Positions 22,291 to 39,735 of a DNA stretch of 64,000 nucleotides are shown here, one piece after another. Numbering within the stretch: the first letter of the stretch is position 1; every line of letters begins with the position of its first letter. This DNA is from Dehalococcoidia bacterium (GTDB taxonomy: Bacteria; Chloroflexota; Dehalococcoidia; SZUA-161; SpSt-899): assembly GCA_046545575.1 (NCBI GenBank), contig JBKGZM010000001.1, positions 2,729 to 66,728 on the forward strand, in the 5' to 3' direction. A program made the position numbers and the translations under genes. The notes beneath the pieces were generated by a model. That model saw only the letters and a list, made by a program, of their open reading frames with translations, was not told the DNA's origin and ran no database searches.

Positions 22291-22305
22291 GCAAGGAGGC
22301 GATAA

Positions 22306-22875: not shown

Positions 22876-22913
22876 CCCTTTACCCGCCAATAGTTACAGT
22901 TAGGAGGTAGCCG

Positions 22914-23786: not shown

Positions 23787-23863
23787 CTGTGGCAACCGAG
23801 GTCGGTTAATCAACCTTAACTGACCTTTAATCAATGAAATCAATATACAAAAGGGGTGTGCAA

Positions 23864-26800
23864 ATGGAAGAGCCAAGAATCGGTGTTTACATTTGTCACT
23901 GTGGAAGTAACATCGCGGGAACGGTGAACTGTGAGGACGTATCCGCTTTCGCGCAGGATCTGCCTGGAGTGACCATAGCTCGCGACTACAAGTACATGTG
24001 TTCGGACCCCGGGCAGAACCTCATCAAAGAGGACATCAAAAACCTCAATGTCAACCGTGTTGTTGTAGCTTCCTGCTCGCCGCGGATGCACGAACCCACA
24101 TACCGACGCTGTATTCAGGAAGCAGGATTAAATCCATACCTGTTTGAGATGGCCAATATCAGGGAACATTGCTCCTGGGTTCACCCAAACGAACCTGAGA
24201 AAGCTACGGAAAAGGCTAAAGCGCTGGTTCGCGGCGCAGTACAGAAAGTCTACTATCACGAGCCACTGGAGACAAGGGAGGTTCCGGTAAATCCCAGTGT
24301 CTTGATTATGGGTGGAGGAATTGCAGGTATCCAGGCCGCTCTCGAAATCGCCAGTTCTGAAAACAAGGTATACTTGGTAGAACGTGAGCCTTCTATTGGC
24401 GGTCACATGGCTCAACTCGACAAGACCTTCCCTACCCTTGACTGTTCAGCCTGTATCCTCACCCCCAAGATGAGTCTTGTAGGAGCTCATCCAAATATCG
24501 AGCTCCTGACTTACAGTGAGGTAGAAGAGGTAGCAGGCTATGTTGGCAATTTCGAGGTTAAGGTAAGGGAAAAGGCTCGATTTGTCGATGAAGAAAAATG
24601 CACCGGATGCGGTGAATGTACCAGGGCATGTCCTGTAGAAATCCCTTCCAAGTTCGAGTTGGGAATGACCAACACAAAGGCCATAGCAACGTCCTTCGCC
24701 CAGGCCGTTCCCAATGTCGCTTCCATCTATAAACGTGAGGGAGGTGCCTGGCCCCCCTGTCGCTTTACATGCCCCGCCGGAGTAAATGCTCAGGGGTACA
24801 TCGCCCTCATCTCTCAGGGCAATTTCAAGGAAGCGGCCGAGGTCGTGAGAAAAACCATGCCGTTCCCAGGCATTCTGGGGAGGGTATGTACACATCCATG
24901 CGAATCGGAGTGTGAGCGAGCAAAGCTCGATGAACCAATGGCCATCAGGGCTCTTAAGCGTTCAGCTGCTGACTATGAGAGGAAAGTGGGCAGGGAAAAA
25001 GCAAGCCCTGTAGAGATAACCAAGAAAGGGAAGATCGCGGTCGTGGGTTCAGGCCCAGCCGGCCTCGCATGTGCCTATGACCTCATACGCGAAGGATACC
25101 CTGTGACGGTATTTGAGGCAATGCCCGAAGCCGGGGGAATGCTTCGGTACGGCATTCCCGAATATCGCTTGCCAAAGGACGTGCTGGACAGCGAGATCAG
25201 CTACATAGAGGAACTTGGAGTAGAGATCAAGACAAACAATCCGATCAACGATATCGGTCAGCTTTTCAACGAGGGGTATAAAGCCATATTCATGAGTAAC
25301 GGCGCCTGGACAAGCCAGAAGATGAGAATAGAAGGGGAGGATGCAAACGGGGTGCTCCATGCGCTGGACTTCCTGAAGCGCGTCAATTCCGGAGATCAAA
25401 CCCAAATAGGCAAAAAGGTAGCCGTTGTCGGCGGTGGCAATGCTGCCATCGATGCTGCCAGGGTAGCATGGCGATTAGGCGCTGAGGAGGTAAGCATCGT
25501 CTACCGGCGCTCACGGGAAGAGATGCCCGCGGAAAAGAGTGAAATCGAGGAAACTGAAAGGGAAGGTATCAACATACAGTTCCTGGCAGCACCAAACAAA
25601 GTTCTAAGTGAAGGCAATAAGGTCAGTGGCATAGAGTGCACGCGAATGGAACTAGGTGAGCCTGATGCCAGTGGCCGACGTCGGCCCGTGCCCGTAAAAG
25701 GGTCTGAGTTCACTCTGGATGTAGACAACGTCATCATTGCCATCGGACAGGGCGTCGACAAGGAAGCACTGCCTGAGGAGCTTGAATACACTCAATGGAA
25801 TACCCTCTCAGTTGATGAGATTACTTTGGAGACGAACATCGACGGCGTATTCGCCGGTGGTGACGTAGTTTCCGGCCCAGCCTCGGTAATCGACGCTGTT
25901 GCTGCAGGCAAGGAAGCCGCTACATCAATTGACCGCTACATCAGGGATGTGGACATGAAAGAGGGCAGACCAGAGGAGAGGAGAAAGGTGTCCGATGTGC
26001 CCAAAGAGGGTGTTGCCAGTGCTTCGAGAAGTTCCATGTCCACCATTGAAGTTGATAAGCGGGTCCGTTCCTTCGCTGAAGTCGAGCAGGGCTTTGATGA
26101 AAATACAGCAATAGAGGAAGCCAAGCGCTGCTTGAATTGTGCCGGGTGTGCGGATTGTCGAGAGTGCGAGAAGGTCTGTGAGGCCGGGGCCATCAATCAC
26201 AGCATGCAGGACGAGATCCTGAACCTGGAAGTAGGAAACATAATCGTAACCACTGGCTTCCAAGCCTTCGACCCAACACCGATTTACCAATACGGGTATC
26301 ATCGCCTGGATAATGTTGTTACCGGCCTGGAGTTCGAACGTCTGATAAGCGCATCAGGTCCAACCGAAGGGCATATAGCACTTAAGAATGGAGAAGAGCC
26401 GGATAGTGTGGCTATTATCCATTGTGTAGGAAGCCGGGATGCCAAATACCACGAGTACTGTTCGCGGGTCTGCTGCATGTATTCCATGAAGTATGCCCAT
26501 TTACTCAGGGAACACGTCCCGAACGCCAGGATATATGAATTCTACATTGACCTGAGATGCTTCGGCAAAGGCTATGAAGAATTCTACAACCGGATGCTGA
26601 AGGAGGATATCACCTTCATTCGCGGCCGGCCCGGCGAGATCACACAGGAGGACGGCAAACTGGTAGTCCATGCCGAAGATACGCTGGCTTCCATCATGCG
26701 TGATATACCGGTCGACATGGCAATCCTGAGCATAGGCCTGGAGCCACAGGAAGATGCCGATGAGGTCTCCAAACTACTCAAGATGAGCAGAAGCGCGGAT

Positions 26801-27205
26801 GGCTTCTTTATGGAGAGTCATCCCAAGCTAGAGCCAGTATCCACACCCACAAAGGGAGTATTCATCGCCGGCTGCTGCCAGGGGCCCAAGGATATCCCTG
26901 ACACGGTAGCTCAGGCTTCAGGGGCAGCGGCGGAGGCTCTGGCCATGATCAGCAGAGGAAAGGTTGAAGTGGAAGCAGCTACCTCCGTGGTGGACGAAGA
27001 CCTTTGCTCCGGCTGCAAAACATGTGTATCACTATGCCCCTATGGCGCGATTTCGTTCGATGAAGAGAAAAAGGTGGCTGTCATAAACGAGGTGCTGTGC
27101 GAAGGGTGTGGTCTATGTGCCGCTACCTGCCCTTCAGGCGCTATCAAGGCCAGGCACTTCACGACACAGGAGATCATGGCGCAGATCGAGGGCATTCTGG
27201 TTTGA
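23864..27205 (+). CDS. hdrL: HdrA-like flavoprotein with an inserted NfnB/GltD-like NAD(P)H:FAD module (HdrL-type)
   Basis: HdrA N-terminus (RIGVYICHCGSNIAG; IMGGGIAGIQAA). A GltD-like insert spans about 24750-25950 (PPCRFTCPAG; VVGSGPAGLACAYDL; VVGGGNAAIDAAR). It is followed by an HdrA C-terminus (HCVGSRD..YCSRVCCMY) and a terminal 2x[4Fe-4S] region (CSGCKTCVSLCP; CEGCGLCAATCP). ATG 23864 follows AAAGGGG. Confidence 0.8.
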   Translation: MEEPRIGVYICHCGSNIAGTVNCEDVSAFAQDLPGVTIARDYKYMCSDPGQNLIKEDIKNLNVNRVVVASCSPRMHEPTYRRCIQEAGLNPYLFEMANIREHCSWVHPNEPEKATEKAKALVRGAVQKVYYHEPLETREVPVNPSVLIMGGGIAGIQAALEIASSENKVYLVEREPSIGGHMAQLDKTFPTLDCSACILTPKMSLVGAHPNIELLTYSEVEEVAGYVGNFEVKVREKARFVDEEKCTGCGECTRACPVEIPSKFELGMTNTKAIATSFAQAVPNVASIYKREGGAWPPCRFTCPAGVNAQGYIALISQGNFKEAAEVVRKTMPFPGILGRVCTHPCESECERAKLDEPMAIRALKRSAADYERKVGREKASPVEITKKGKIAVVGSGPAGLACAYDLIREGYPVTVFEAMPEAGGMLRYGIPEYRLPKDVLDSEISYIEELGVEIKTNNPINDIGQLFNEGYKAIFMSNGAWTSQKMRIEGEDANGVLHALDFLKRVNSGDQTQIGKKVAVVGGGNAAIDAARVAWRLGAEEVSIVYRRSREEMPAEKSEIEETEREGINIQFLAAPNKVLSEGNKVSGIECTRMELGEPDASGRRRPVPVKGSEFTLDVDNVIIAIGQGVDKEALPEELEYTQWNTLSVDEITLETNIDGVFAGGDVVSGPASVIDAVAAGKEAATSIDRYIRDVDMKEGRPEERRKVSDVPKEGVASASRSSMSTIEVDKRVRSFAEVEQGFDENTAIEEAKRCLNCAGCADCRECEKVCEAGAINHSMQDEILNLEVGNIIVTTGFQAFDPTPIYQYGYHRLDNVVTGLEFERLISASGPTEGHIALKNGEEPDSVAIIHCVGSRDAKYHEYCSRVCCMYSMKYAHLLREHVPNARIYEFYIDLRCFGKGYEEFYNRMLKEDITFIRGRPGEITQEDGKLVVHAEDTLASIMRDIPVDMAILSIGLEPQEDADEVSKLLKMSRSADGFFMESHPKLEPVSTPTKGVFIAGCCQGPKDIPDTVAQASGAAAEALAMISRGKVEVEAATSVVDEDLCSGCKTCVSLCPYGAISFDEEKKVAVINEVLCEGCGLCAATCPSGAIKARHFTTQEIMAQIEGILV

Positions 27206-27223
27206 GCTTTGTCATGTGTGGAT

Positions 27224-28312
27224 ATGGAACAGATTCAGTCTCCGCGGATGCAGCAAGAGCAGCGGCATGTTCTTCGCATAGAGCAAGCCAACCTCCTGCA
27301 GATGTCTGAGGAGGAATTTCAGAGCTTAGTTGCTCAAATAGAAAAGAGCTCTCTCTTTAAGAAGCTCTACAAATCAGAAAACATAATCCATTACCAGCGA
27401 TTCCCCAAGACTGATATCTCCGCTCGCTGCTACGAGCTCAAGGAAAACATCCTCGCTGACGAGGGCTCTCTCGATGTGGAGCCCCTTCTGCAGCAGAGAG
27501 GGGAAGTGGTGGAGCTTATACAAAAGATAGGGCTGGAGAAGTTCAAGGAGTTCTTCCTCTTTCCCGACCCCGAGATTACCGCAGAGCATATCGCACAGGA
27601 GTGTAATATAAGTCTCTCCCAGGTGCACAGGATAAACGAATTCATCACCGACTTTTCCGCCATGAGCGAGTTCTATCATCCTTCAGCGATCAGCCCGGAG
27701 GAGAGAGTCCATTACTCCAAGGTCGCTTCAATAGAACGAGCACATGACGGCTTTGTTATCGGCTATTACCCCCCATCACTTGCCAGGGGAAGATATTCGA
27801 TTAACTACGAAAAATTTGAGAAAATAATAAATGAGAGGTTAACTGAGGCAGAGGGTAAGGAAGCAAGGAAGCTGTTCAGGAAACTGGAGTTGATAAATGT
27901 GCGCAAAGATACGCTGACGCAGATATTGCAAAATGTGGTGGAGAAGCAGAAACTATATTTGGACACCGGGGATGCGATGTCTCTCCTTCCGTTAAGTCAG
28001 AAGGAAATGGCCAACCAAATAGGACTGGATTCAAGCACGGTCAGCCGTACTATTCACGGGAAAAGCGTGGAGACGCCATGGGGAGAGGAGAAACCGATTA
28101 AAGATTTCTTCGCACATCCCAAGGACTTCAAGAAAGAGGCGCTTAAGAGAGTCTTTGAATCCGAAAGACGACCTCTCAGCGACCAGGCGATCAAAGAGAA
28201 ACTGGAGGAGTCAGGTATATTACTTTCCCGGCGCTCGATAGTGAACTTGAGGCAGGAGCTGAGAATGCCTTCATCACGAAAACGGTTTAAGAAACAGGAA
28301 AGCACAAAATGA
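27224..28312 (+). CDS. rpoN: Compact sigma-54 (RpoN) family sigma factor homolog
   Basis: Gln/Leu-rich region I (MQQEQRHVLRIEQANLLQMSEEEF). HTH segment LPLSQKEMANQIGLDSSTVSRTIHGKSVETPWGEEKPIKDFF. RpoN-box-like C-terminus PLSDQAIKEKLEESGILLSRRSIVNLRQELRMPSSRKR, compared with the canonical ARRTVAKYR. About 362 aa. Confidence 0.75.
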   Translation: MEQIQSPRMQQEQRHVLRIEQANLLQMSEEEFQSLVAQIEKSSLFKKLYKSENIIHYQRFPKTDISARCYELKENILADEGSLDVEPLLQQRGEVVELIQKIGLEKFKEFFLFPDPEITAEHIAQECNISLSQVHRINEFITDFSAMSEFYHPSAISPEERVHYSKVASIERAHDGFVIGYYPPSLARGRYSINYEKFEKIINERLTEAEGKEARKLFRKLELINVRKDTLTQILQNVVEKQKLYLDTGDAMSLLPLSQKEMANQIGLDSSTVSRTIHGKSVETPWGEEKPIKDFFAHPKDFKKEALKRVFESERRPLSDQAIKEKLEESGILLSRRSIVNLRQELRMPSSRKRFKKQESTK

Positions 28313-30234
28313 GTGTTGTGTACACCATAAAGGATAAATGCAAGGAATGCTACGCATGTGTCCGTAGCTGCCCTGTAAAAGCTATTAGGGTTAGAGAGCG
28401 GAAAGCCGAGGTCTTGAGGGATCGGTGTGTGGCCTGCGGCACGTGTATTAATGTCTGCCACGCAGGCGCAAAGAAATACGAAAGCGATATCGGGCTTGCT
28501 TGGCAATTACTGCGTGAAAATGCACCTGTCATAGCCGTTTTGTCGACCTCGTTCCCAGCAGGCTTTCCTGAAGTCCGCCCGAGGCAGCTCGTCACTGCCC
28601 TTAAGAAACTCGGATTCAACGAGGTTATGGAGGCTGCTTTTGGCGCTGAACTGGTTGCGCGCGAATACCGCAGGCTCTTCGATGAGAACAAAAAGGCTCC
28701 AATGCTCTCTTCTACCTGCCCGGCGTTTGTATCCATGATAGAGAAATTCTATCCTCAATTGATAAACAACTTAGCGCCCACTGTCTCACCAATGATAGCC
28801 ATGGGCCGAGTTATCAAGTGGAAATACAATCCAAATGCTAAAGTTGTCTTTGTGGGCCCATGTATTTCTAAGAAACTCGAGAAGATAGATGAAAAACTCT
28901 CTGGCGTAATCGATGCCGTCCTTACCTTTCCCGAGTTAAAGGAGATGTTTGCAGCCAAAGAGATTGATCCTGCCTCTGAAGAGGAATCACAATTCTCCGG
29001 GCCAAAGTCCAACCTCGGGCATCTATTTCCCATCTCCGGAGGATTGCTAAAGGTGACCGGAATTCCCGGCGACATTTCCACTACTGACGTCGTCTGGGCC
29101 GAAGGAAGGAGACGAGCTCGATGGTGTGTTGATGATCTCGCCCAGAACCGGATCGCCACCCGATTCCTAGATGCCTACTTCTGTGAAGGATGTATCAACG
29201 GCCCAGCAATCGGTAATGAGTTACGTACAACGGAAAAAAGAAGGATCGTTACCGAACACTTTGTGAATGAGTCTAATCCTGCGCAGGCTGAGAAAGACAT
29301 CCAAGAGTACAGCGGAATCGATCTGAGTCGCAAGTTTACAAATAGATTCAGCTCTCTGGAGCAACCCCGTGAGGAAGATGTAGAGGAAGTCCTTAATCAG
29401 ATCGGTAAGGCATCTCCAGAAGATCAACTTGACTGTGGCGCCTGTGGCTATGCTACCTGTAGGGAGCTGGCCGTAGCAGTGTCTCAGGGGCTGGCCGAGG
29501 TAGAGATGTGCTGGCCATATCTGTTTCGCAAGCTCAAGGATGCTCAGGAACAACTTATTCAAGCGGAGAAATTAACATCACTGGGGCAAATGGCGGCGGC
29601 TATCGCCCATGAAATCAATAATCCACTGGCGGGAGTTCTGACCTACACCAAACTTCTGATGAAAAAGGCCGAAAACGATTCTCTGACCAAGGAGATGTCC
29701 AGGGAGTATCTCCCGAAGATGGAGTCAGAGGTGACCCGCAGCTCCCGAATAATTCGCAATCTGCTGGATTTTGCCAGACAAACGGAGCCGATGTTACGTG
29801 AAACAGACATAAATCAAACCATAGAAAAAGCTCTATCTCTCGTAGGACACCAGGCGCAGATACAGAATGTCGAGGTCAAAAAAGAGCTGAGCCCTGACTT
29901 GCCCAAAATCACAGCTGATTTCGACAAATTACAGCAGGTGTTTACCAACCTTATTCTGAACGGGGTTCAGGCGATGCCGGATGGTGGAACGCTCACGTTA
30001 CGGAGCCAGCCCACGGGCAATGGCCATGTCAGGATTGACATTCAGGACACCGGATATGGCATACCCAAAGAGAACTTTCGCAATCTGTTTACGCCTTTCT
30101 TCACCACCAAAGAAAAGGGGAAGGGGGTAGGCCTGGGACTGGCTGTAGTGCATGGCATTATAGAGCAGCATAAAGGAAAGATCAATGTCCAGAGCGAGGA
30201 AGGGAAGGGAACGAGGTTCAGTATCTATTTGTAA
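28309..30234 (+). CDS. Sensor histidine kinase with an N-terminal 2x[4Fe-4S] ferredoxin, an [FeFe]-hydrogenase H-domain-like module and an RnfB-type Fe-S motif
   Basis: CKECYACVRSCP and CVACGTCINVC. H-cluster-like motifs SSTCPAFV, VGPCISKKLE and FCEGCINGP. CGACGYATCRELA...C. HisKA H-box AAIAHEINNPL. HATPase N and G boxes (NLILNGVQAM; DTGYGI; GKGVGLGL). The start overlaps the rpoN-like stop as ATGA. Confidence 0.8.
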   Translation: MSVVYTIKDKCKECYACVRSCPVKAIRVRERKAEVLRDRCVACGTCINVCHAGAKKYESDIGLAWQLLRENAPVIAVLSTSFPAGFPEVRPRQLVTALKKLGFNEVMEAAFGAELVAREYRRLFDENKKAPMLSSTCPAFVSMIEKFYPQLINNLAPTVSPMIAMGRVIKWKYNPNAKVVFVGPCISKKLEKIDEKLSGVIDAVLTFPELKEMFAAKEIDPASEEESQFSGPKSNLGHLFPISGGLLKVTGIPGDISTTDVVWAEGRRRARWCVDDLAQNRIATRFLDAYFCEGCINGPAIGNELRTTEKRRIVTEHFVNESNPAQAEKDIQEYSGIDLSRKFTNRFSSLEQPREEDVEEVLNQIGKASPEDQLDCGACGYATCRELAVAVSQGLAEVEMCWPYLFRKLKDAQEQLIQAEKLTSLGQMAAAIAHEINNPLAGVLTYTKLLMKKAENDSLTKEMSREYLPKMESEVTRSSRIIRNLLDFARQTEPMLRETDINQTIEKALSLVGHQAQIQNVEVKKELSPDLPKITADFDKLQQVFTNLILNGVQAMPDGGTLTLRSQPTGNGHVRIDIQDTGYGIPKENFRNLFTPFFTTKEKGKGVGLGLAVVHGIIEQHKGKINVQSEEGKGTRFSIYL

Positions 30235-30273
30235 CCGATCCTCCTTTGAATTCTTGGTTCAAGGTGAAAACTG

Positions 30274-31674
30274 ATGCAGGATGCTGACACCACACGACAA
30301 TCCCCGGATATGAAAAGCCAGATCAAAATCCTCGCTGTCGATGATGAAGAGACAGTCCGCGAATCACTAAAGGACTGGCTCACCGACTCAGGGTATCAGG
30401 TGCTGGTCGCTGAAGACGGATACAAAGCACTCGACATTATTAAACGTGAGAAGATAGGCATACTCATAGCCGATTTAGTAATGCCGGGCATAGACGGCAT
30501 TGAACTCATGAGAAGAACCAAGGAAATCTCCCCTGACACGGGTGTAATCATCATAACTGCGTACGGAAGCGTACCCAGTGCTGTGTCCGCGATGCATGAA
30601 GGGGCCTATGACTATATCGAGAAGCCATTCTGCCCCGAACGGGTGGAGTCGCTCCTTGAGAAGTTGATGGAACACCAGAGATTGGTAGAGGAAAACCGAG
30701 TTCTCCGCGAACAATTAGAAGACCATTACCGTTTTGAGAACATCATCGCTAAGAGCCACAAAATGCACAAGATTTTCGATGTGGTCAAAACCGTGGCCAA
30801 GAGCAATGCCAGTGTCCTCATCACCGGCGAAAGCGGGACCGGCAAGGAGCTTATTGCACGGGCCATCCATAATCTAAGTCCCCGCCGGGACAAGCCTTTC
30901 GTGGATGTGAGTTGCGCTGCATTACCTGAGAGCCTCCTCGAGAGCGAGCTATTCGGGCATGAGAGAGGGGCTTTTACCAGCGCTGTAAATCAAAGAAAGG
31001 GAAGATTTGAACTCGCTCACCGCGGGACCCTTTTCCTCGATGAAATAGGAGAGATAAGCACCAACATGCAGGTACACCTGCTCAGAGTCCTGGAGGAACG
31101 GGAGTTCACTCGCGTCGGGGGCACTGAGCCCATAAAGACCGATGTACGCCTCATTTCAGCCAGCAACAAAAACCTGAAGGAGGCGATAAACGAGGGAGAA
31201 TTCAGGGGAGACCTCTACTATCGCCTGAACGTAGTCAGCATTGAACTCCCGCCCCTCAAGGAAAGAAGCGAAGATATCCCCCTGCTGGCTCAACATTTTC
31301 TGAACAAGTTCGCCCGGGAGAACCAGAAAGGTGAGATTAAGCTTTCTTCCGAGGCCATGGACTTCCTTATGAAGTACGACTGGCCCGGGAATGTAAGGGA
31401 GCTAGAGAACACTATTGAGAGGGCGGTCGTGCTCACACAGGATAGCACGATCAACGTAGATGATCTGGCAACACAAAACCTACCTTCTGCTCAGCAATCT
31501 TCAAGTGAAGGAAGCCTTGAAGATATGGAAAAGCAACACATTGTAAATGTCCTCAAGGAGACCAGCGGGAACCACACCGAAGCAGCGAAACGGCTCGGGA
31601 TCACCCGGATGACCCTTTACAAGAAAGTCAAGAAATACGGAGTGGATGTAAACAAATTAAGCAGTGCTGTATAA
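30274..31674 (+). CDS. Sigma-54-dependent response regulator (NtrC family: REC, AAA+ and Fis-type HTH)
   Basis: REC domain (ILAVDDEE..IADLVMPGIDG), Walker A GESGTGKE, GAFTGA-loop variant ERGAFTSA, an ESELFGHE box and a C-terminal HTH (NHTEAAKRLGITRMTLYKK). Confidence 0.9.
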   Translation: MQDADTTRQSPDMKSQIKILAVDDEETVRESLKDWLTDSGYQVLVAEDGYKALDIIKREKIGILIADLVMPGIDGIELMRRTKEISPDTGVIIITAYGSVPSAVSAMHEGAYDYIEKPFCPERVESLLEKLMEHQRLVEENRVLREQLEDHYRFENIIAKSHKMHKIFDVVKTVAKSNASVLITGESGTGKELIARAIHNLSPRRDKPFVDVSCAALPESLLESELFGHERGAFTSAVNQRKGRFELAHRGTLFLDEIGEISTNMQVHLLRVLEEREFTRVGGTEPIKTDVRLISASNKNLKEAINEGEFRGDLYYRLNVVSIELPPLKERSEDIPLLAQHFLNKFARENQKGEIKLSSEAMDFLMKYDWPGNVRELENTIERAVVLTQDSTINVDDLATQNLPSAQQSSSEGSLEDMEKQHIVNVLKETSGNHTEAAKRLGITRMTLYKKVKKYGVDVNKLSSAV

Positions 31675-31700
31675 TTTGTTTACAGTCCAGGGGCAGCCCC

Positions 31701-31734
31701 GGGTAGGCCAGGCCGACGTCGGCCTGGCCTACCC
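31701..31734. repeat. Perfect 34-nt GC-rich palindrome
   Basis: GGGTAGGCCAGGCCGACGTCGGCCTGGCCTACCC with no T-run after it. Its centre is about 105 bp upstream of the -24 element at 31822. Confidence 0.9.
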
Positions 31735-31768
31735 GTATTAGACACGCAGAACACCCGTAGCAACCCAG

Positions 31769-31817
31769 GGGAGGAGGGCGGTCCGCCGACGGCGGACCGC
31801 CCTCCTCCCTTTTCTTT
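31769..31817 (+). terminator. Strong rho-independent terminator after the kinase/activator genes
   Basis: A 20-bp perfect stem (GGGAGGAGGGCGGTCCGCCG-A-CGGCGGACCGCCCTCCTCCC) followed by TTTTCTTT. Confidence 0.8.
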
Positions 31818-31820
31818 AAT

Positions 31821-31837
31821 TGGCAACAAAATTGCAT
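31821..31837 (+). promoter_or_regulatory. Sigma-54 (-24/-12) promoter
   Basis: TGGCAACAAAATTGCAT matches the consensus TGGCACG-N4-TTGCW with exact GG-to-GC spacing. It lies 26 nt upstream of ATG 31863 and an RBS GGAGGTG follows it. Confidence 0.65.
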
Positions 31838-31862
31838 ATACATTAGGGTGGAGGTGATAGAG

Positions 31863-32936
31863 ATGATGAAGGGAGAAGAGAACAAAAGAAATGAAATCCA
31901 ACCTAAGGAGGTGGACAATATGAAACGGCAACCTGTACTGATAGTTGAGGATGAAAACATCATGCGAGAGTCCCTCAGGGACTGGCTGGCAGACAGCGGT
32001 TACGAGGTAACCACAGCCGAAGATGGTGAACAAGCGCTGCAAATGCTCGGAGAGCAAGAATTCGGCGTGGCGGTTCTTGACCTCAAACTACCGGGTAAGG
32101 ACGGCGTTGAGGTCCTGAAAGAAGCCACAAACCGGCAACCGAACCTGAAGGGCATCATTATCACCGCCTATCCGTCTGTGGAGACGGCGGTAGAGGCGAT
32201 GAAGTACGGCGCAACCGACTACCTGGTCAAGCCGGTCTCCCCGGATGAACTCGAGGACCTGATACAAAAGACCCTGGGTCCCGTACAGGCCGAGATCAGG
32301 CCACAGCCCGCTGCCGAGGAAGCTGTAGAGACCGAAACAGAAGCGGCCGAAGTCGAGCAACCGGCAGTTGAAGAGGAAGTCCCCAGCATAAGCGAAGCCG
32401 AAGCCCCTGCACACATGCAGGAGGGGAAGAACCTCTTGAAGGCTGGGCGCTTCGATCAAGCGAAAAGGGAATTCCAGGCCGTGATAAGCGTACAGCCTGG
32501 CAACCTGGAAGCACGGCAGTACCTCCGCCAAGCGAAGGAAGAGGTAGCAAAATCAGCAAAAGCTGCTGAAGCCCGTCCAGAAGTGGGCAAGCCATGCGTG
32601 TGGATGAAGCTGGGACTCGTCTCCTACCGCATGTGCAATCGGGACTACGATTGCTTCGCCTGCGAGTTCGACCAGATGATGCAGGAGAGATTAGCAACCG
32701 AGGAAGCGGAAGTAGACAAGGCAGTGGAGCGACTCAAGGAATTGCCAGGCAACCAGCGGGTTTGCCGCTACGCCCTTAAGGGAGAGGTCGCTCACCGGAC
32801 ATGTAGCCACCTTTTCAACTGTGCACAGTGTGAGTTCAATCAAATGATGGAAGATGCATTCCTGCAAAAGCTGACTGCGGAGCAGGAAGCGCTGCGCAAG
32901 AAGAAAGACAGTTGGTGGTGGAGTTACTGGAGTTAA
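31863..32936 (+). CDS. Response-regulator receiver protein with an acidic linker, a TPR-like segment and a duplicated C-x12-C-x5-C-x2-C module
   Basis: REC domain (VLIVEDEN..VLDLKLPGKDG..ITAY). Two copies of C..x12..C.x5.C.x2.CEF[DN]QMM. A Trp-rich tail SWWWSYWS. ATG 31863 lies 6 nt after GGAGGTG, whereas the track start is a GTG at 31848. Confidence 0.75.
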   Translation: MMKGEENKRNEIQPKEVDNMKRQPVLIVEDENIMRESLRDWLADSGYEVTTAEDGEQALQMLGEQEFGVAVLDLKLPGKDGVEVLKEATNRQPNLKGIIITAYPSVETAVEAMKYGATDYLVKPVSPDELEDLIQKTLGPVQAEIRPQPAAEEAVETETEAAEVEQPAVEEEVPSISEAEAPAHMQEGKNLLKAGRFDQAKREFQAVISVQPGNLEARQYLRQAKEEVAKSAKAAEARPEVGKPCVWMKLGLVSYRMCNRDYDCFACEFDQMMQERLATEEAEVDKAVERLKELPGNQRVCRYALKGEVAHRTCSHLFNCAQCEFNQMMEDAFLQKLTAEQEALRKKKDSWWWSYWS

Positions 32937-32952
32937 ACAAAGAACGGTAGAT

Positions 32953-32986
32953 TATAGCCCGCCCGGGTATACCCGGGCGGGCTATA
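32953..32986. repeat. Perfect 34-nt palindrome
   Basis: TATAGCCCGCCCGGGTATACCCGGGCGGGCTATA, immediately followed by TGTATAAT (a -10-like sequence). Confidence 0.9.
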
Positions 32987-33062
32987 CGTGTATAATAGTA
33001 TAACAAAACCAGATAAACGCATCCCTGAAGAACGATTTCTAAAACCATAAGGAGGTAACCAT

Positions 33063-33530
33063 ATGGCTTATGAGGCGGTTGAAACGAGTACAGTAGAGGG
33101 GATCATAAATAGATACTCAGGAGACAGTTCAGCCCTTATTCAAGTCCTTCTGGACATCCAGCGTGAAAATCGGTGGTTGCCAAAAGACACCCTGAAACTG
33201 GTCAGTCAAAGTCTCGGTGTTCCATTAACTCAAGTCTACCATATAGCTAGCTTCTACAAGGCCTTCAGTCTTATACCCAAAGGGCGAAATCAGGTTACGG
33301 TTTGCCTGGGTACTGCGTGCCATACCAGGGGTGCGCCTCGTCTTCTGGACAGGGTTTCCACAAGCCTGAAGCTGAACCCGGGCGAGACCTCGGAAGACAT
33401 GCGCTTTAGCCTGGACACGGTCAACTGCCTCGGCTGCTGTGCTCTGGGACCAGTGATGATGGTCGGGGAGCAGTACTACAGCAACCCTTCCACGGAAGAG
33501 TTGGAGAATATCTTCTCCGCATGCGAATGA
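33063..33530 (+). CDS. nuoE: NuoE/HoxE-like [2Fe-2S] thioredoxin-fold subunit
   Basis: VCLGTACHTRGA ... VNCLGCCALGP in a 155-aa protein with RBS AAGGAGG. Confidence 0.85.
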   Translation: MAYEAVETSTVEGIINRYSGDSSALIQVLLDIQRENRWLPKDTLKLVSQSLGVPLTQVYHIASFYKAFSLIPKGRNQVTVCLGTACHTRGAPRLLDRVSTSLKLNPGETSEDMRFSLDTVNCLGCCALGPVMMVGEQYYSNPSTEELENIFSACE

Positions 33531-33560
33531 TCCCGCAATCAATATATTAAGGAGGGAGCT

Positions 33561-36117: not shown

Positions 36118-36149
36118 TCGACCCCCTGGACTGACAAAGATTCCTGCCG

Positions 36150-36176
36150 GGCGCACCCGCCGAAGGCGGGTGCGCC
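36150..36176 (+). terminator. GC-rich hairpin after the diaphorase genes
   Basis: GGCGCACCCGCC-GAA-GGCGGGTGCGCC. It shares the apical core CCGCCGAAGGCGG with the hairpin at 56708. Confidence 0.5.
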
Positions 36177-36192
36177 GCTATGATCGCTCGCA

Positions 36193-36218
36193 GCAGGAGG
36201 TAAGCACTTACCTCCTGC
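36193..36218 (+). terminator. Second hairpin (tandem with 36150)
   Basis: GCAGGAGGTAAG-CA-CTTACCTCCTGC, with a T-run (GTTTTTG) about 12 nt downstream. Confidence 0.45.
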
Positions 36219-36322
36219 TCCAACAACACGTTTTTGAGTTTCTCAAGTTCTCCTGGCTCTTGGGGCCAGGCTCTAGCTGCAAAACATATTGCTATAGCTA
36301 CACCTTGTGGGCACCTTTAGAT

Positions 36323-36363
36323 TTGACAAGAAAGACTCGCATACGGTATACTGTATGCATACA
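36323..36363 (+). promoter_or_regulatory. Sigma-70-like promoter with overlapping palindromic operator candidates upstream of the ArsR-family gene
   Basis: TTGACA, an 18-nt spacer and TATACT. GCATAC-N8-GTATGC (36339-36358) and the 12-nt palindrome TGTATGCATACA (36352-36363) overlap the -10 and +1 positions. Confidence 0.5.
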
Positions 36364-36388
36364 TGCGCATATAGGAAATTAGTTTGTC

Positions 36389-36790
36389 ATGCAGGAAAGA
36401 TTGAGAGTATTCAAAGCCCTCTCCGAGGAAACAAGGATGAGGATTATGGGGGTGCTCCTCCAGCGAGAATGTTCAGTTTGTGAAGTGGCCCAGTCACTGA
36501 GTATTTCCCAAACCAGGGCTTCCCGCGGGTTAACTGCTCTCCATAACGCAGGGCTATCCAAGACAAGACGGGATGGACTATGGGTCCTTCATTCCATAGA
36601 TAAAGATACCGTTGAGAAATCTTGCCCCGGACTTCTGAACCTCCTTGATGAATGCCTGAATGATGAAGAAATATGCGTCATTGATCGGGAGAGACTGCGC
36701 CACGCAGTGCGGGAAAGCCCCTGCAACTATATCCTCGAATTGTCAGAAAAGGAAGAAGCATACTCTTGCGAAAGCGATAGTGTTGGCTAA
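36389..36790 (+). CDS. ArsR/SmtB family transcriptional regulator
   Basis: FKALSEETRMRIMGVLLQRECSVCEVAQSLSISQTRASRGLTAL (a winged HTH with CxxC in place of the ArsR CVC) and a Cys-containing C-terminal extension. Confidence 0.8.
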   Translation: MQERLRVFKALSEETRMRIMGVLLQRECSVCEVAQSLSISQTRASRGLTALHNAGLSKTRRDGLWVLHSIDKDTVEKSCPGLLNLLDECLNDEEICVIDRERLRHAVRESPCNYILELSEKEEAYSCESDSVG

Positions 36791-36823
36791 TAAATAATAA
36801 TTCGAAACTCGAAAGGGGGGAAG

Positions 36824-37237
36824 ATGGACCAGTTTGAACCGAAGATATTGGGATTTTGCTGTAACTGGTGCTCTTATGCTGGCGCCGACCTCGCTGGCAC
36901 TTCCCGAATGCAGCAAGCGACCAATGTGCGGATAATCAGGGTCATGTGTAGTGGCAGAGTTGACCCGACATTCATACTCAAAGCCTTTGAAGCAGGGGCT
37001 GACGGCGTGCTCATCGCCGGTTGCCATCCCGGAGATTGCCACTACATCGCAGGCAACTACAAAACTGCCCGGCGAATCTCTCTCCTCCAGAATATGTTAG
37101 AGCAACTCGGAATAGAGAAGGAGCGAGTCCGTATGGAGTGGGTTTCCGCCGCCGAGGGAGCGAAATTCACACAGGTAGTCAACGATTTTACAAAAACCCT
37201 CAAAGAATTGGGCGCAAGCCCAGTTAAAGCCCAATAA
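36824..37237 (+). CDS. mvhD: Methyl-viologen-reducing hydrogenase delta subunit (MvhD/FlpD family)
   Basis: ILGFCCNWCSYAGADLAG...VMCSGRVDPTFILKAFEAGADGVLIAGCHPGDCHY. Confidence 0.9.
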   Translation: MDQFEPKILGFCCNWCSYAGADLAGTSRMQQATNVRIIRVMCSGRVDPTFILKAFEAGADGVLIAGCHPGDCHYIAGNYKTARRISLLQNMLEQLGIEKERVRMEWVSAAEGAKFTQVVNDFTKTLKELGASPVKAQ

Positions 37238-37258
37238 ATTAAAAGGAAAGGAGCGAAC

Positions 37259-38236
37259 ATGGCTAAGCCGAAGGTTGCTTTTTACTGGAACGCATCGTGT
37301 GGCGGATGTGAGGAGACGGTCGTTGATCTGAATGAAGATATACTGAAGGTCGCAGACGCCGTCGACATAGTGCTATGGCCTGTCGCGCTGGATTTCAAGA
37401 GGAAGGATGTCGAAGCCCTGGCCGACGGGGAGATAGCAGTCAGCTTCATCAACGGGTCCATAAGACTGGAAGAACAGGAGGACATGGTAAAACTCCTCAG
37501 GCAGAAATCCGGACTGGTAGTGGCGTTTGGGGCATGTGCTCACATCGGCGGAATACCCGGACTGGGGAATTTCTGGAACAGGGAAACGATATTCGATCGG
37601 GCATATAAGGAAGTCCCAAGCGTTGAGAATCCGGAGGGAACACTGCCTCAGGAGAAAACAACAGTTGACGGCTGTGAACTAACCCTCCCGGAATTCTACG
37701 ACACAGTCAAGACATTGGACCAGACAATTGACGTGGATTACTACCTCCCGGGATGCCCCCCACCACCCGACCTCGTCATGAATGCCATAAACGCGATTTT
37801 GCAAGGCGATTTGCCCGAAAAGGGATCAGTACTCGCCCCTGCCAAAGCCCTGTGCGATACATGCCCTAGAAGGGACTCAAAGCCGGAGAAAATATCGATC
37901 TCCGAGGTGAAGAGGCCGTGGGAAATCAAGATGGACCCTGAGACATGCTTCCTGGCACAGGGCGTGATCTGTCTCGGTCCCGCTACTCGCTCAGGATGCG
38001 GTGAGACCTGTATCAGAGCCAACATGCCCTGCCGTGGATGCTTCGGCCCGGTGGACGGAGTTGCGGATCAGGGCGCAAGGGCCCTCTCGGCAATCGCCTC
38101 CATACTGGGACTCGAGGGCGAGGAAAATATGCCCGAGCAGGACGTCCAGAAGCTGGTCGATCAAATCGTAGACCCCGCTGGGACATTCTACAGGTTCGGT
38201 CTCCCAGCTTCTCTACTTCGAAGAAAGAAGATGTAG
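37259..38236 (+). CDS. mvhG: [NiFe] hydrogenase small subunit, group 3c (MvhG-like)
   Basis: KVAFYWNASCGGCEETVVDL. At 325 aa it is much larger than HoxY. It has C-terminal Cys clusters (CDTCPR; CLGPATRSGCGETCIRANMPCRGCFGP). Confidence 0.85.
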   Translation: MAKPKVAFYWNASCGGCEETVVDLNEDILKVADAVDIVLWPVALDFKRKDVEALADGEIAVSFINGSIRLEEQEDMVKLLRQKSGLVVAFGACAHIGGIPGLGNFWNRETIFDRAYKEVPSVENPEGTLPQEKTTVDGCELTLPEFYDTVKTLDQTIDVDYYLPGCPPPPDLVMNAINAILQGDLPEKGSVLAPAKALCDTCPRRDSKPEKISISEVKRPWEIKMDPETCFLAQGVICLGPATRSGCGETCIRANMPCRGCFGPVDGVADQGARALSAIASILGLEGEENMPEQDVQKLVDQIVDPAGTFYRFGLPASLLRRKKM

Positions 38237-38268
38237 TAACTCGGAACTGACAGCACAAGGAGGAGATA

Positions 38269-39735
38269 ATGAAACAGATAACCATAGATCCGATTACCAG
38301 ACTTGAGGGACATGGCAAGATCGAGATCTTCCTCAATGATGAGGGAGAGGTCCATCAAGCTTATCTCCAGGTACCCGAACTTCGGGGTTTTGAGAAGTTC
38401 TCTGAGGGAAGGCCGGCAGAGGAGATGCCCAGGATCACCACCATGATCTGCGGGGTCTGTCCCACTGCTCACCACATGGCCGCCACCAAAACGCTCGATG
38501 ACCTGTGGAAGGTGGAGCCAACCTCAACGGCGAAGAAAATAAGACGTTTGATGTACAATGCCTTCCAGGCGGAAGACCATCTGCTCCACTTCTTCTTCCT
38601 CGGCGGCCCCGATTTCATCGTCGGCCCGACGGCACCGGCTGCGGAAAGGAATATACTGGGCGTTGTCGGCAAAGTCGGGACGGAGGCCGGTGGCAAAGTA
38701 ATAGAGGCCAGAAAGAGGCTCAGAAACGTGCTGAGGATAATCGGGGGCAAACCGGTTATGCCCACCTGTGGGCTTCCCGGTGGCGTGTCGAAGGCGATTA
38801 CCGAGGAGGAAAGACAAAGTTGTATAGAGGCAGGGGAATATGCAGTTGACCTTTGCCAGTTTGCCTTAAAGGCCTTCGATGATATAGTGCTGAACAACAA
38901 GGAATATGTCGACCTTATAACTGGTGACGCCTTTACCCACAGGACCTACTACATGGGGCTCGTGGATGAAAACAACAAGGTAGACTTCTACGATGGCATG
39001 ATCAGAGTGGTTGACCCCAATGGTAAGGAATTCGCCAAATTCAGGCCACAGGAATACCTCGACCACGTCAGGGAGCATGTCGAACCGTGGAGCTACATCA
39101 AGTTCTGTTATCTTAAGAACGTGGGATGGAATGGTTTCACCGATGGGGAAGACAGCGGGGTTTACAGAGTGGCACCACTCGCCCGACTCAACGCAGCGGA
39201 TGGGATGCCCACCCCGCTTGCTCAGGAAGCTTACAACAAGATGTACGAGACCCTGGGAGGCAAGCCGGTCCACCATACTCTGGCTTACCACTGGGCCCGG
39301 CTGATTGAGGCGCTTTCCGCTTCGGAGCAGGTGCTGGACCTTGCCAAAGATCCTGAGCTTACCTCCGATGACATCGTAAACCTGCCAACTGCAACTCCGA
39401 AGGAGGGCGTCGGTGTGGTTGAAGCTCCCAGAGGGACCCTGTTCCATCACTATGAGACAGATGAGAAAGGTATCCTGACAAAGGTTAATTTGATCGTGGC
39501 CACAACCAATAACGCTGCTCCCATCAATATGTCGATCGAGAAAGCCGCCAGAGCACTCATACACAACGGAGAGGTTAACGACGGGCTTCTCAACATGGTT
39601 GAGATGGGATTCAGGGCTTACGATCCTTGCCACGCCTGTGCAACCCATAGCTTGCCAAGTGAAACGCCGCTGGAGGTCACAGTCCGCGATTCCCAGGGCA
39701 ATGAGCTTAGAAAATTGACCAGAAACCTCGGTTAA
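38269..39735 (+). CDS. mvhA: [NiFe] hydrogenase large subunit, group 3c (MvhA-like)
   Basis: RLEGHGKIEI, N-terminal Ni-binding motif MICGVCPTAHH, C-terminal DPCHACATH and a cleavable extension. Confidence 0.9.
   Translation: MKQITIDPITRLEGHGKIEIFLNDEGEVHQAYLQVPELRGFEKFSEGRPAEEMPRITTMICGVCPTAHHMAATKTLDDLWKVEPTSTAKKIRRLMYNAFQAEDHLLHFFFLGGPDFIVGPTAPAAERNILGVVGKVGTEAGGKVIEARKRLRNVLRIIGGKPVMPTCGLPGGVSKAITEEERQSCIEAGEYAVDLCQFALKAFDDIVLNNKEYVDLITGDAFTHRTYYMGLVDENNKVDFYDGMIRVVDPNGKEFAKFRPQEYLDHVREHVEPWSYIKFCYLKNVGWNGFTDGEDSGVYRVAPLARLNAADGMPTPLAQEAYNKMYETLGGKPVHHTLAYHWARLIEALSASEQVLDLAKDPELTSDDIVNLPTATPKEGVGVVEAPRGTLFHHYETDEKGILTKVNLIVATTNNAAPINMSIEKAARALIHNGEVNDGLLNMVEMGFRAYDPCHACATHSLPSETPLEVTVRDSQGNELRKLTRNLG

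Follow-up and report, generated by a model that had tools for sequence, protein, structure and literature searches.

The 64,000-nt stretch of Dehalococcoidia DNA analysed here (the window) contains a locus that, on balance, we read as a self-contained sigma-54-type switch, probably for hydrogen or redox metabolism. It comprises genes for a compact sigma-54-family protein, a sensor histidine kinase and an NtrC/AtoC-type activator, then a palindrome, an intrinsic terminator and a -24/-12 promoter (table 1). The domain content, gene order, terminator, promoter motif and palindrome are accompanied by conservation across about 55 uncultured Dehalococcoidia species, in which the arrangement recurs. 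Because the package is conserved in more than 50 species, it looks like a self-contained genetic switch. A first-pass annotation of this DNA had proposed that a sigma factor is encoded next to a cognate promoter and together with a kinase and an activator of its own, and the recurrence of the arrangement supports this.

Table 1. Features of the locus and its neighbours. Positions are those of the window; residues are those of the compact sigma-54-family protein.
Feature	Position	Strand	Description
hdrC	22306-22875	+	Pfam/NCBIfam
hdrB	22914-23786	+	Pfam/NCBIfam
hdrL	23834-27205	+	HdrA with inserted GltD/NfnB-like module; Pfam/NCBIfam
Compact sigma-54-family gene	27224..28312	+	362 aa; ORF 27209/27224-28312; Sigma54_DBD match
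Compact protein, N-terminus	residues 1-51		region I resemblance
Compact protein, segment	residues 52-117		short segment specific to lineage
Compact protein, remainder	residues 118 onward		aligns with canonical C-terminal CBD subdomain, ELH-HTH (-12 reader) and RpoN box (SRRSIVNLR)
Soluble sensor histidine kinase	28309..30234	+	putative HydS-type [FeFe]-hydrogenase module fused to HisKA-HATPase_c
NtrC/AtoC-type enhancer-binding response regulator	30274..31674	+	REC, AAA+ sigma-54 interaction, Fis-type HTH
Inverted repeat TGTAAACAAATT...AATTTGTTTACA	31647..31684	.	spans activator stop codon; repeat search
Intrinsic terminator	31768..31820	+	20-bp stem, 16 GC pairs, hairpin 31768-31810, then T-run TTTCTTTAAT
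-24/-12 promoter TGGCAACAAAATTGCAT	31821..31837	+	GG 31822-31823, GC 31834-31835
Response-regulator gene, first behind promoter	31863..32936	+	REC, acidic linker, TPR, two CX12CX5CX2C; Response_reg + TPR_2
NuoE-like gene	33063-33530	+	Pfam
NuoF-like gene	33561-35489	+	Pfam
2Fe-2S/4Fe-4S ferredoxin-like gene	35482-36117	+	Pfam
Sigma-70-like promoter TTGACA-18-TATACT	36323-36352	+	heads separate arsR/mvh unit, 36323..39735
arsR-family gene	36389-36790	+	separate unit
mvhD	36824-37237	+	separate unit
mvhG	37259-38236	+	separate unit
mvhA	38269-39735	+	separate unit

The compact gene has the length (about 362 codons) and the start first assigned to it, with its ATG 19 nt past the hdrL stop and an intergenic gap of 18 nt. 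The earlier description of its product as a recognizable RpoN homologue holds from residue 118 onward, while region I is matched at motif level only and the N-terminal CBD subdomain was not detected. The Pfam check suggested for this gene gave a similarly divided result: Sigma54_DBD matched residues 211-354 (E 1e-25), but Sigma54_AID (PF00309) and Sigma54_CBD (PF04963) had no match in any of 32 compact members, even at E up to 10. The score against TIGR02395 was 106 bits, with a cut-off of 277. Comparison of compact and canonical profiles with hhalign (probability 99.85%, E 8e-31) aligned residues 118-359 with canonical residues 207-456, of which window residues 118-195 correspond to the C-terminal CBD subdomain (canonical 207-290). 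The stretch matching the minimal core-binding fragment (E. coli 120-215) was not alignable, and about 90 residues that belong to region II and the N-terminal part of the core-binding domain in canonical proteins are absent. The -12 HTH segment corresponds to E. coli residues 314-392 and keeps the SxxSR of the recognition helix, S271 and R275 being invariant even across a diverse alignment. The RpoN box, part of the domain that reads the -24 GG, matches canonical ARRTVAKYR, and its arginines R336, R337 and R343 do not vary within the compact family. Foldseek returned sigma-54 chains as the best 28 matches and likewise as all significant ones. The compact proteins form a discrete clade of about 360 aa apart from canonical sigma-54, scoring 291-475 bits where the latter reach no more than 87 bits, and 175 clusters (50% identity) fall below E 1e-30. 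Their NCBI annotation is hypothetical protein.

The compact protein is proposed to bind core RNA polymerase and may respond to the activator. It is improbable, in our estimation, that it is instead a non-sigma DNA-binding regulator that lost core binding and represses or competes at -24/-12 sites, leaving the activator to use a canonical sigma-54 elsewhere. Such a regulator would explain why AID and the canonical core-binding fragment are undetectable, and inactive truncated RpoN proteins do occur in Neisseria. However, the N-terminal half is strongly conserved among Dehalococcoidia members (mean column identity 70%, with many invariant residues in 1-200), the C-terminal CBD subdomain is retained, and even the diverse family keeps an N-terminal pattern, L..A..LL.(L/M).E..F...I..IE..PLF, that resembles canonical region I (LLQLS..EL......E.NPLLE). 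HMMER puts family residues 12-51 onto E. coli residues 12-47 with a negative score, and a model of the N-terminal half alone had low confidence (pLDDT 57) and no significant fold match. The canonical sigma-54 that such a regulator would leave to the activator was not seen in any flank examined; a phmmer search of the flanks with the compact protein found one further ORF only (in locus L027), matching the DBD alone.

The kinase gene follows with its ATG overlapping the TGA of the sigma gene as ATGA at 28309, in agreement with the translational coupling noted previously. Pfam detected two Fer4 domains, Fe_hyd_lg_C, FeS (PF04060), HisKA (PF00512, E 5e-16) and HATPase_c (PF02518, E 2e-26), the last two identifying a histidine kinase, and the sensor module aligns to [FeFe]-hydrogenase structures (E 2e-28). 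This module has two N-terminal [4Fe-4S] motifs, an H-domain and a C-terminal Cx2Cx4Cx16C; together with the loss of Cys299, these are the features of the described HydS architecture (PMC8163306). The H-domain carries the motifs P1 SSTCPA, P2 GPCISKKLE and P3 FCEGC and additionally CGACGYATCRELAVAVSQGLAEVEMC, and its substitutions C299T, which removes the proton-relay cysteine, and M353G are those of known putative sensory hydrogenases. The kinase is thus a fusion of the HydS-like [FeFe]-hydrogenase/kinase kind in particular, and it therefore probably reports H2 or cellular redox state. Sensing of H2 itself is uncertain for several reasons. The H-cluster ligands P1 Cys300 and P2 Cys355 are present, but P3 reads FC(E/Q/H)GC in every orthologue with an identified P3 motif, giving CxxC and not CxxxC (Cys499-x3-Cys503). 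The hydEFG maturation genes were not found within the 64-kb window, and H-cluster motifs are doubtful in other kinase-linked group C1 proteins too. Finally, a membrane kinase replaces or accompanies the HydS-type kinase in 15 related loci, so H2 is not a universal input.

As first annotated, an NtrC-type AAA+ activator lies behind the kinase, with REC (PF00072), Sigma54_activat (PF00158, E 6e-73), AAA_lid_14 (PF25601) and HTH_8 (PF02954) domains. Its best NCBIfam match is AtoC at 494 bits, under the equivalog cut-off of 714 bits, which indicates family membership and not AtoC itself. The L1 loop reads GAFTSA in the window, and a GAFTGA-type loop is present in 47/47 orthologues (GSFTGA in 35, GAFTGA in 11, GAFTSA in one), implying a sigma-54 partner. 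The midpoint of the inverted repeat over the activator stop codon lies about 180 nt before the predicted transcription start. A strict pattern for its consensus, TGTAAAGAAA-N17-19-TTTCTTTACA, finds it at the same position in 29 of 48 loci; the palindrome can be seen by eye in further, uncounted loci that this pattern rejects for extra mismatches. It lies about 175 nt from the promoter in the window, farther than the roughly 90 nt of most loci, which weighs against the proposed scheme. We infer that the repeat is a candidate upstream activating sequence bound by the activator.

The strong terminator and the near-consensus -24/-12 promoter reported behind the activator gene were both found, as a hairpin with 16 GC pairs and as TGGCAACAAAATTGC at 31821-31835 with canonical GG/GC spacing. 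A hairpin and T-run occupy the matching place in nearly all related loci, and the terminator is predicted to insulate the sigma/kinase/activator transcript from the downstream promoter, whose transcription start is expected near 31847. A search for other TGGCA-N6-TTGC promoters had been recommended for the rest of the genome; the 64-kb window contains this single exact match, a number not above chance (0.72 expected; at least one in 59 of 100 shuffles). The significance of the promoter comes from position and conservation and not from the window match alone. Within 330 nt past the activator gene, the exact motif occurs 44 times, in 40 of the 45 related loci, a 258-fold higher density than elsewhere, where 17 occurrences fall in 1.48 Mb of strand positions. 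With a matrix built from the other loci, the window promoter scored 23.4 bits and was the only site above noise, the next best in the 64 kb reaching 8.8 bits. A promoter lies within this distance of the activator gene in 43/45 loci and elsewhere in the locus in the other two.

Across loci the promoter consensus is TGGCAAGAAAATTGCA, in which GG, C, AA and TTGC are invariant. The AGAAAA spacer varies less than the spacers of typical sigma-54 promoters, which might point to a protein operator. We nevertheless find it very unlikely that the element serves another regulator as operator or acts at the RNA level, with the response-regulator gene transcribed by sigma-70 holoenzyme or read-through. The sigma-54 determinants (GG-10 nt-GC within TGGCA-N6-TTGC) coincide exactly with the invariant positions, and the element, which sits behind a strong terminator, keeps a constant spacing to a conserved G-rich start region and Shine-Dalgarno sequence. 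No Rfam family matches the region, nor was a good sigma-70-like promoter found in it.

The first gene behind the promoter encodes a response regulator, with an alternative in-frame start at 31920. Its Cys motifs (32595-32663 and 32763-32831) are both present in 37/47 orthologues, and across related loci the promoter always precedes such a response-regulator gene with TPR and a Cys-rich tail. No terminator-like site was found on the + strand between 32936 and 36117, and the NuoE-, NuoF- and ferredoxin-like genes are probably co-transcribed with the regulator gene; the same trio follows it in loci L046, L051, L053, L055 and L060. Hdr or NuoEF-like genes are often next after the regulator gene, and HdrC(B)/HdrA/MvhD make up the output in relatives. 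The arsR/mvhD/mvhG/mvhA unit has a sigma-70-like promoter of its own, and its direct control by the -24/-12 promoter is improbable. The cassette lies within an Hdr/Mvh cluster, as first described, but the conserved direct target of the -24/-12 promoter is the response-regulator gene and not the Hdr/Mvh genes as such. The position of the sigma gene 19 nt behind hdrL is peculiar to this genome. Here, a terminator-like hairpin lies upstream of hdrC (22165-22189) and none was found between hdrL and the sigma gene, and hdrC/hdrB/hdrL are probably co-transcribed with the sigma/kinase/activator genes. Most relatives have a conserved sigma-70-type promoter of their own before the sigma gene.

Sigma-54 is usually viewed as a single, global, full-length factor for many activators. 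The compact gene could be this lineage's only general-purpose sigma-54, diverged and shortened, with a genome-wide regulon and an activator that is adjacent incidentally or belongs to a small repertoire. We consider this unlikely, though it is the strongest of the alternatives. Chlamydia, Borrelia and Lactobacillus plantarum have small sigma-54 systems served by just one activator (PMC3162934). In addition, some compact members (L067, L070) have no activator gene beside them and lie in flagellar clusters, whose control is a classic task of a global sigma-54. A general factor is, however, harder to reconcile with the linkage of sigma, kinase, activator and promoter, which withstands extensive rearrangement of the surroundings. 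Gene order is retained in 42/45 related loci with enough DNA. Members at only 30-42% identity also occur in sigma/(sensor)/activator cassettes with other sensors and cargo; the exact TGGCA-N6-TTGC lies just past the cassette in three such loci and a one-mismatch site in a fourth. Searches of the DNA flanking the module (up to 10 kb per side in the loci examined) and of the rest of the 64-kb window turned up no additional activator gene, and the scarcity of promoter matches off the canonical position also argues against a genome-wide role.

For the self-contained switch that we favour, we propose the following mechanism. Bound to core RNA polymerase, the compact sigma-54 would keep it in a closed complex at the 31821-31837 promoter. 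The adjacent activator, once phosphorylated by the HydS-like kinase in response to H2 or redox state, would assemble on the palindrome that spans its stop codon. Its G(A/S)FT(G/S)A loop and ATP hydrolysis would remodel the sigma N-terminal region to give an open complex. The output would be the second-tier response regulator and, here, the NuoE/NuoF/ferredoxin-like electron-transfer genes. Presumptive parts of this scheme are core binding, the need for the activator, the site that it binds, the signal and the extent of the regulon.

More tentatively, the compact proteins may constitute a class of cassette sigma-54 factors, each with its own sensor, AAA+ activator and local promoter. They would form portable, mutually insulated ATP-gated switches on lineage-specific cargo, binding core RNA polymerase via a novel short N-terminal module. 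Their relation to canonical sigma-54 would resemble that of ECF sigmas to sigma-70. The cargo includes H2/redox bifurcation complexes here and, elsewhere, lipid/radical-SAM genes, HEAT-repeat genes or flagella. The compact proteins appear to be tied to a single kinase, activator and promoter each. If they work as proposed, surveys with standard models overlook sigma-54 systems in Chloroflexota and in certain further uncultured lineages, and sigma-54 can do without the N-terminal core-binding region of canonical proteins or was rebuilt to lack it. Subsurface Dehalococcoidia that are uncultured would then control Hdr/Mvh/NuoEF electron bifurcation by a dedicated, possibly H2-sensing switch, and the cassettes would be candidate compact orthogonal transcription switches for synthetic biology.

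Canonical RpoN systems with NtrC-family activators (NtrB-NtrC and AtoS-AtoC of E. coli) share with the cassette the RpoN box, -12 HTH, C-terminal CBD subdomain, REC/AAA+/Fis-HTH activator, GAFTGA-type loop and GG-N10-GC promoter. An upstream palindromic enhancer is probably common to both; the AtoC site is a 40-bp palindrome. Unlike canonical RpoN, the compact protein is about 90 aa shorter, lacks region II and is silent for Pfam AID and CBD. Canonical rpoN is usually found with lptB/hpf/ptsN, whereas the compact gene shares its cassette with kinase, activator and promoter.

The Hk2-Rrp2-RpoN-RpoS pathway of Borrelia burgdorferi and CtcB-CtcC-sigma-54 of Chlamydia appear to have one kinase and one activator per sigma-54 and very few promoters, as does the cassette. 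To our knowledge, rpoN in these bacteria is canonical and full-length and is not in one operon with the kinase and activator. In Borrelia, the direct sigma-54 target is another regulator, similar to the response-regulator gene here (PMC3162934, PMC3037356). The sensors of both systems differ from the HydS-type sensor of the cassette.

In Cupriavidus necator (Ralstonia eutropha), HoxBC-HoxJ-HoxA connects a hydrogenase-type sensor through a histidine kinase and an NtrC-type activator to H2-metabolism genes (PMC5665086). The logic is the same as in the cassette, with a regulatory [NiFe]-hydrogenase as the Hox sensor. HoxA-controlled promoters are sigma-54-dependent. Unlike the Hox cascade, the cassette has a sensor of the [FeFe] HydS type fused to the kinase, includes the sigma factor and has a response regulator as its first target. 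The putative sensory [FeFe]-hydrogenases TmHydS, TamHydS and kinase-linked group C1 (groups C/D) share with our sensor the two [4Fe-4S] motifs, the replaced C299, the M353 to G substitution and Cx2Cx4Cx16C. They differ from it in that our sensor is fused directly to HisKA-HATPase_c without PAS and has CxxC spacing in P3; association of HydS with a sigma-54 cassette has not been described. HATPase-domain fusions of sensory [FeFe]-hydrogenases have been noted in Hydrogenedentota. Finally, rpoN1-4 of Rhodobacter sphaeroides and rpoN1/2 of Bradyrhizobium, unlike the compact gene, are full-length and canonical and are not co-transcribed with a kinase/activator pair, but these paralogues are specialized and lie inside the cluster that they serve, as the compact sigma-54 gene does here.

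Re-reading of the sequence confirmed the coordinates and junctions of the first-pass annotation, which had described contiguous genes for a sigma-54-like protein, a sensor kinase and an NtrC-type activator, followed by a strong terminator and a -24/-12 promoter (table). The sigma ATG lies 19 nt past the hdrL stop, and the kinase start overlaps the sigma stop in an ATGA. The terminator is a hairpin with a 20-bp stem (16 GC pairs) and a T-run at 31768-31820, and the promoter, TGGCAACAAAATTGC at 31821-31835, has canonical GG-to-GC spacing. Further downstream, NuoE-like, NuoF-like and truncated HydA/NuoG-like ferredoxin genes adjoin mvhD, mvhG and mvhA (33063-39735), a set that resembles the subunits of the electron-bifurcating NiFe-HydABCSL hydrogenase. 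Elsewhere the window carries hypF (49841-52180), genes for a HypB/CobW-like GTPase (48748-49536) and a molybdopterin oxidoreductase (52898-55345), a MetV-like gene (43464-44114) and two MvhD-polyferredoxin fusions (42301-43467; 59010-60197, - strand).

Table. Layout of the sigma-54-like gene and its neighbours in the window.
Feature	Position	Strand
hdrC	22306-22875	+
hdrB	22914-23786	+
hdrL (HdrA with inserted GltD/NfnB-like module)	23834-27205	+
sigma-54-like protein, ORF of 362 aa	27224-28312	+
histidine kinase, 641 aa	28309-30234	+
NtrC-type activator, 466 aa	30274-31674	+
non-coding stretch	31675-31862	
response-regulator gene	31863-32936	+
nuoE-like, nuoF-like and ferredoxin-like genes	33063-36117	+
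arsR-family gene, mvhD, mvhG, mvhA	36389-39735	+

The 362-aa ORF had been read as a short but recognisable RpoN homologue. Pfam bore this out for the DNA-binding domain (Sigma54_DBD, E 1e-25, residues 211-354) but not for the activator-interacting and core-binding domains; Sigma54_AID and Sigma54_CBD matched neither the ORF nor any of 32 relatives at E up to 10. The NCBIfam rpoN model scored 106 bits against a cut-off of 277, and the database copy of the exact protein, from an NCBI MAG of a Dehalococcoidia bacterium, is annotated as hypothetical. A full-length AlphaFold model (pLDDT 75.5) gave 28 Foldseek matches at E < 0.01, 26 of them at 0.001 or below, and every one was a sigma-54 chain. 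Residues 1-211 modelled alone yielded a poor structure (pLDDT 57) and no significant Foldseek match, so that this model neither confirms nor rejects a core-binding fold. An hhalign run against an E. coli RpoN sequence, consistent with the fragments in an HMMER alignment, aligned the DNA-binding domain alone, and was superseded by comparison with a real canonical alignment. In this decisive test, a profile of 36 diverse compact proteins was compared with a profile of 12 canonical sigma-54 proteins carrying all three Pfam domains. Window residues 118-359 aligned to canonical residues 207-456 (probability 99.85%, E 8e-31), which indicates that the compact protein retains the C-terminal helical subdomain of the core-binding domain, the short beta segment, the extra-long helix with the -12 helix-turn-helix, and the RpoN box. 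Some 65 residues stand in place of canonical residues ~50-206, which comprise region II and the N-terminal core-binding subdomain. Conserved within the first 50 residues is a pattern, RLEQANLLEMPEEEF..L..EIE.SPLF (L.LA..L.L.E..F...I..IE.DPLF in the wider family), that resembles canonical region I (LLQLS..EL......E.NPLLE), a likeness without statistical support. Invariant in the family are the RpoN-box arginines and, in the -12 recognition helix, the Ser/Arg. Assignment of the protein to sigma-54 is supported partly by sequence and strongly by context; binding to core polymerase and dependence on an activator are its proposed functions.

Searching 1.84 billion representative proteins revealed 175 clusters (50% identity) below E 1e-30, nearly all of 330-400 aa and aligned over their full length. 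The profile search showed a sharp gap: compact proteins, with PF04552 as sole domain, scored 291-475 bits, and the next proteins below were canonical sigma-54 factors of 422-506 aa with all three Pfam domains, at 87 bits or less. Where named, the hosts were Chloroflexi, Dehalococcoidia, "bacterium" and Candidatus Aerophobetes. Generality was sampled in seven distant members (30-42% identity). In four of the seven, the first or second gene after the sigma gene encodes an activator, and the same four carry a TGGCA-N6-TTGC site just past the cassette, exact in three and with one mismatch in the locus L071. Each of the four has another type of sensor (REC-GAF kinase, bare HisKA-HATPase, HTH-cupin protein or HATPase fragment), and their cargo consists of HEAT-repeat genes, an unknown gene, a ketoacyl-synthase with B12/radical-SAM genes, and NifU/CBS genes. 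One contig ends too early to judge. The remaining two members (loci L067 and L070, ~30% identity) sit within clusters of flagellar genes (fliA, flhA, flhB, fliPQR; flgH, flgI, flgM, flgN, flgK, fliW, csrA), so the compact family is not confined to redox cassettes. We also noticed in the related locus L027 (1053-2402, - strand) a divergent neighbour of the compact sigma gene, a second ORF of 449 aa as called, with Sigma54_DBD as its sole match (E 6e-9), which may be a further sigma-54-like paralogue.

The sensor of the kinase has the architecture of putative sensory [FeFe]-hydrogenases (PMC8163306): two [4Fe-4S] motifs at the N-terminus are followed by an H-domain, and its best structural relatives are [FeFe]-hydrogenases (E 2e-28). 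The P1 motif, SSTCPA, has Thr in place of the proton-relay Cys299; P2, GPCISKKLE, has Gly for Met353, as in TmHydS; and P3, in every orthologue with an identified P3, is FCxGC, a residue short of the canonical CxxxC. The C-terminal end of the sensor matches Cx2Cx4Cx16C exactly, and HisKA-HATPase_c is joined straight to it without a PAS domain. No hydEFG genes occur in the 64-kb window, and a 2024 study hardly found H-cluster motifs in kinase-linked group C1 proteins. Candidate signals for the kinase are H2 and the redox state of its FeS clusters. The activator comprises REC, an AAA+ sigma-54 interaction domain, a lid and a Fis-type HTH, with AtoC as the closest NCBIfam model. Its sigma-54-contacting loop reads GAFTSA, and orthologous activators have GSFTGA (35 cases) or GAFTGA (11); conservation of this loop implies a sigma-54 partner.

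A single scan of GTDB species genomes yielded 60 loci. L064 and L065 among them were false positives, aldehyde dehydrogenases sharing the peptide ELINARKDT; the others come almost entirely from Dehalococcoidia or Chloroflexota MAGs, and contig look-ups added four more. In 45 distinct loci the sequence extends 3.6 kb or more past the sigma gene; 42 of these keep sigma, kinase and activator in that order, and of the three that do not, one reflects an artefact of scoring. The surroundings of this unit are reshuffled throughout: hdrCBL lies upstream in the same orientation, as in the window, or is divergent, or is absent, and the downstream genes vary between hdrC(B)-hdrA-mvhD, nuoE-nuoF-fd and further receiver genes. 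The sensor is a hydrogenase-like kinase in 37 loci, a membrane kinase (~415 aa, about four transmembrane helices) in 15, and both in three. In the related locus L001, a decayed promoter, TGGCAGAAGAATTAC, lies downstream of the activator gene (14416-14620), fused to a fragment encoding ...RDYDCLTCEFDQLM and a stop. This fragment is left over from the C-terminus of the regulator; an intact regulator gene with an intact promoter now stands on the upstream side of the sigma gene, evidence that a rearrangement took place.

We counted promoter matches to TGGCA-N6-TTGC in the 330 nt after the activator gene, allowing at most one mismatch with GG and GC obligatory. Such a match was present in 43 of the 45 loci with at least 330 nt, and elsewhere in the locus in the remaining two. 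The consensus is TTaTT-TGGCAAGAAAATTGCA, in which GG, C, AA and TTGC are invariant; six bases past the promoter comes AAGGGTGRAGGAG, then the ATG of the regulator gene. The expected transcription start falls on a conserved G (about 31847 in the window) immediately ahead of the Shine-Dalgarno sequence. Relative to the remainder of the loci, the 330-nt stretch has a 258-fold higher density of exact matches. Taken alone, the single exact match in the 64-kb window is not above chance, but a matrix trained on the other loci gave the window site 23.4 bits versus 8.8 bits for the next best in 64 kb. Some loci carry tandem copies of the promoter, two about 60 nt apart. A hairpin with a T-run always precedes the -24/-12 element, which would insulate the target gene from the sigma/kinase/activator transcript.

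An inverted repeat spans the activator stop codon (TGTAAACAAATT-N14-AATTTGTTTACA, 31647-31684). Its consensus, TGTAAAGAAA-N17-19-TTTCTTTACA, was found in 29 of 48 loci by a strict pattern, and several more have versions with extra mismatches. Only the left arm falls in coding sequence, so coding does not account for the symmetry. Measured from its centre, the repeat is either 82-105 nt or 151-179 nt upstream of the -24 element, distances typical for upstream activating sequences, and it is a candidate site at which the activator would bind. The terminator hairpin was also considered as activator site, as GCTAYCC...GGRTAGC recurs, and rejected because the window hairpin is unrelated in sequence. 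Between the candidate enhancer and the terminator, the window has a perfect 36-bp palindrome (halves CGGGTAGGCCAGGCCGAC and GTCGGCCTGGCCTACCCG, 31700-31735) without a T-run and with no equivalent in the other loci.

The gene always found behind the promoter encodes REC, an acidic linker, TPR and two CX12CX5CX2C-EFxQMM motifs. Both Cys motifs, in tandem at the C-terminus (window 32595-32663 and 32763-32831), are present in 37 of 47 orthologues; no Pfam model covers them, and metal or FeS-cluster binding is possible. The gene has two in-frame ATGs (31863 and 31920), each with a strong Shine-Dalgarno sequence (GGAGGTGA, AAGGAGGTG). Many orthologues share this double start, which could give two protein isoforms or a translated leader. 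In the window no terminator-like site separates the regulator gene from the nuoE-, nuoF- and ferredoxin-like genes, and arsR-mvhDGA has its own good sigma-70-like promoter (TTGACA-18-TATACT, 36323-36352); the direct regulon here is therefore most likely 31863-36117. Rfam detected no known RNA elements in 21800-36500. In the related locus L034 (3002-5242; also in L012, L020, L022 and L045), a gene directly behind a -24/-12 promoter copy encodes a 746-aa fusion of a receiver to a GltD/NfnB-like flavoprotein, with Fer4_20 and two [4Fe-4S] motifs. Direct control of a redox enzyme by phosphorylation, if this is what the fusion achieves, would be unusual.

Most relatives have a conserved sigma-70-type promoter (TTGACA, 17 nt, TGTAAAAT) ahead of the sigma gene. 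Located about 45 nt upstream of the gene, it ends about 7 nt before the ATG (loci L012, L015, L021, L025, L035 and others), suggesting that the transcript has almost no leader and is probably constitutive. This promoter is absent upstream of the window sigma gene; since that gene follows hdrL within 19 nt and without an intervening terminator, the switch components are probably co-produced with HdrCBL here. Sigma-54-type autoregulation, considered for loci with TGGCAwAGCCTTTGC upstream, was rejected: these motifs lie more than 400 nt upstream, and the sigma-70-type promoter is immediately upstream.

The proposed mechanism is a sigma-54/enhancer-binding-protein/two-component switch. Neither the surroundings of the module in any of the loci examined nor the window yielded a second activator gene, and further promoter-pattern matches are almost absent from the related loci and the window, which indirectly favours a small, local regulon. 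The earlier reading, a private switch for H2/redox metabolism, is largely right, and overreaches on "private" and on H2. In the open literature searched we did not find a compact sigma-54 clade without the canonical N-terminal core-binding region, such a clade in one cassette with kinase, activator, terminator, promoter and target, or a HydS-type sensor linked to sigma-54. Fusions of hydrogenase-like domains with kinase modules have been noted previously. The switch resembles the sigma-54 systems with a single activator in Chlamydia, Borrelia and L. plantarum (PMC3162934). Placement of a sigma-54-type gene in a functional cluster recalls Rhodobacter, where rpoN paralogues lie within such clusters. 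Finally, its hydrogenase-type sensor, kinase and NtrC-type activator parallel the cascades of [NiFe] regulatory hydrogenases, in which an H2-sensing hydrogenase acts through a kinase on an NtrC-type regulator (PMC5665086).
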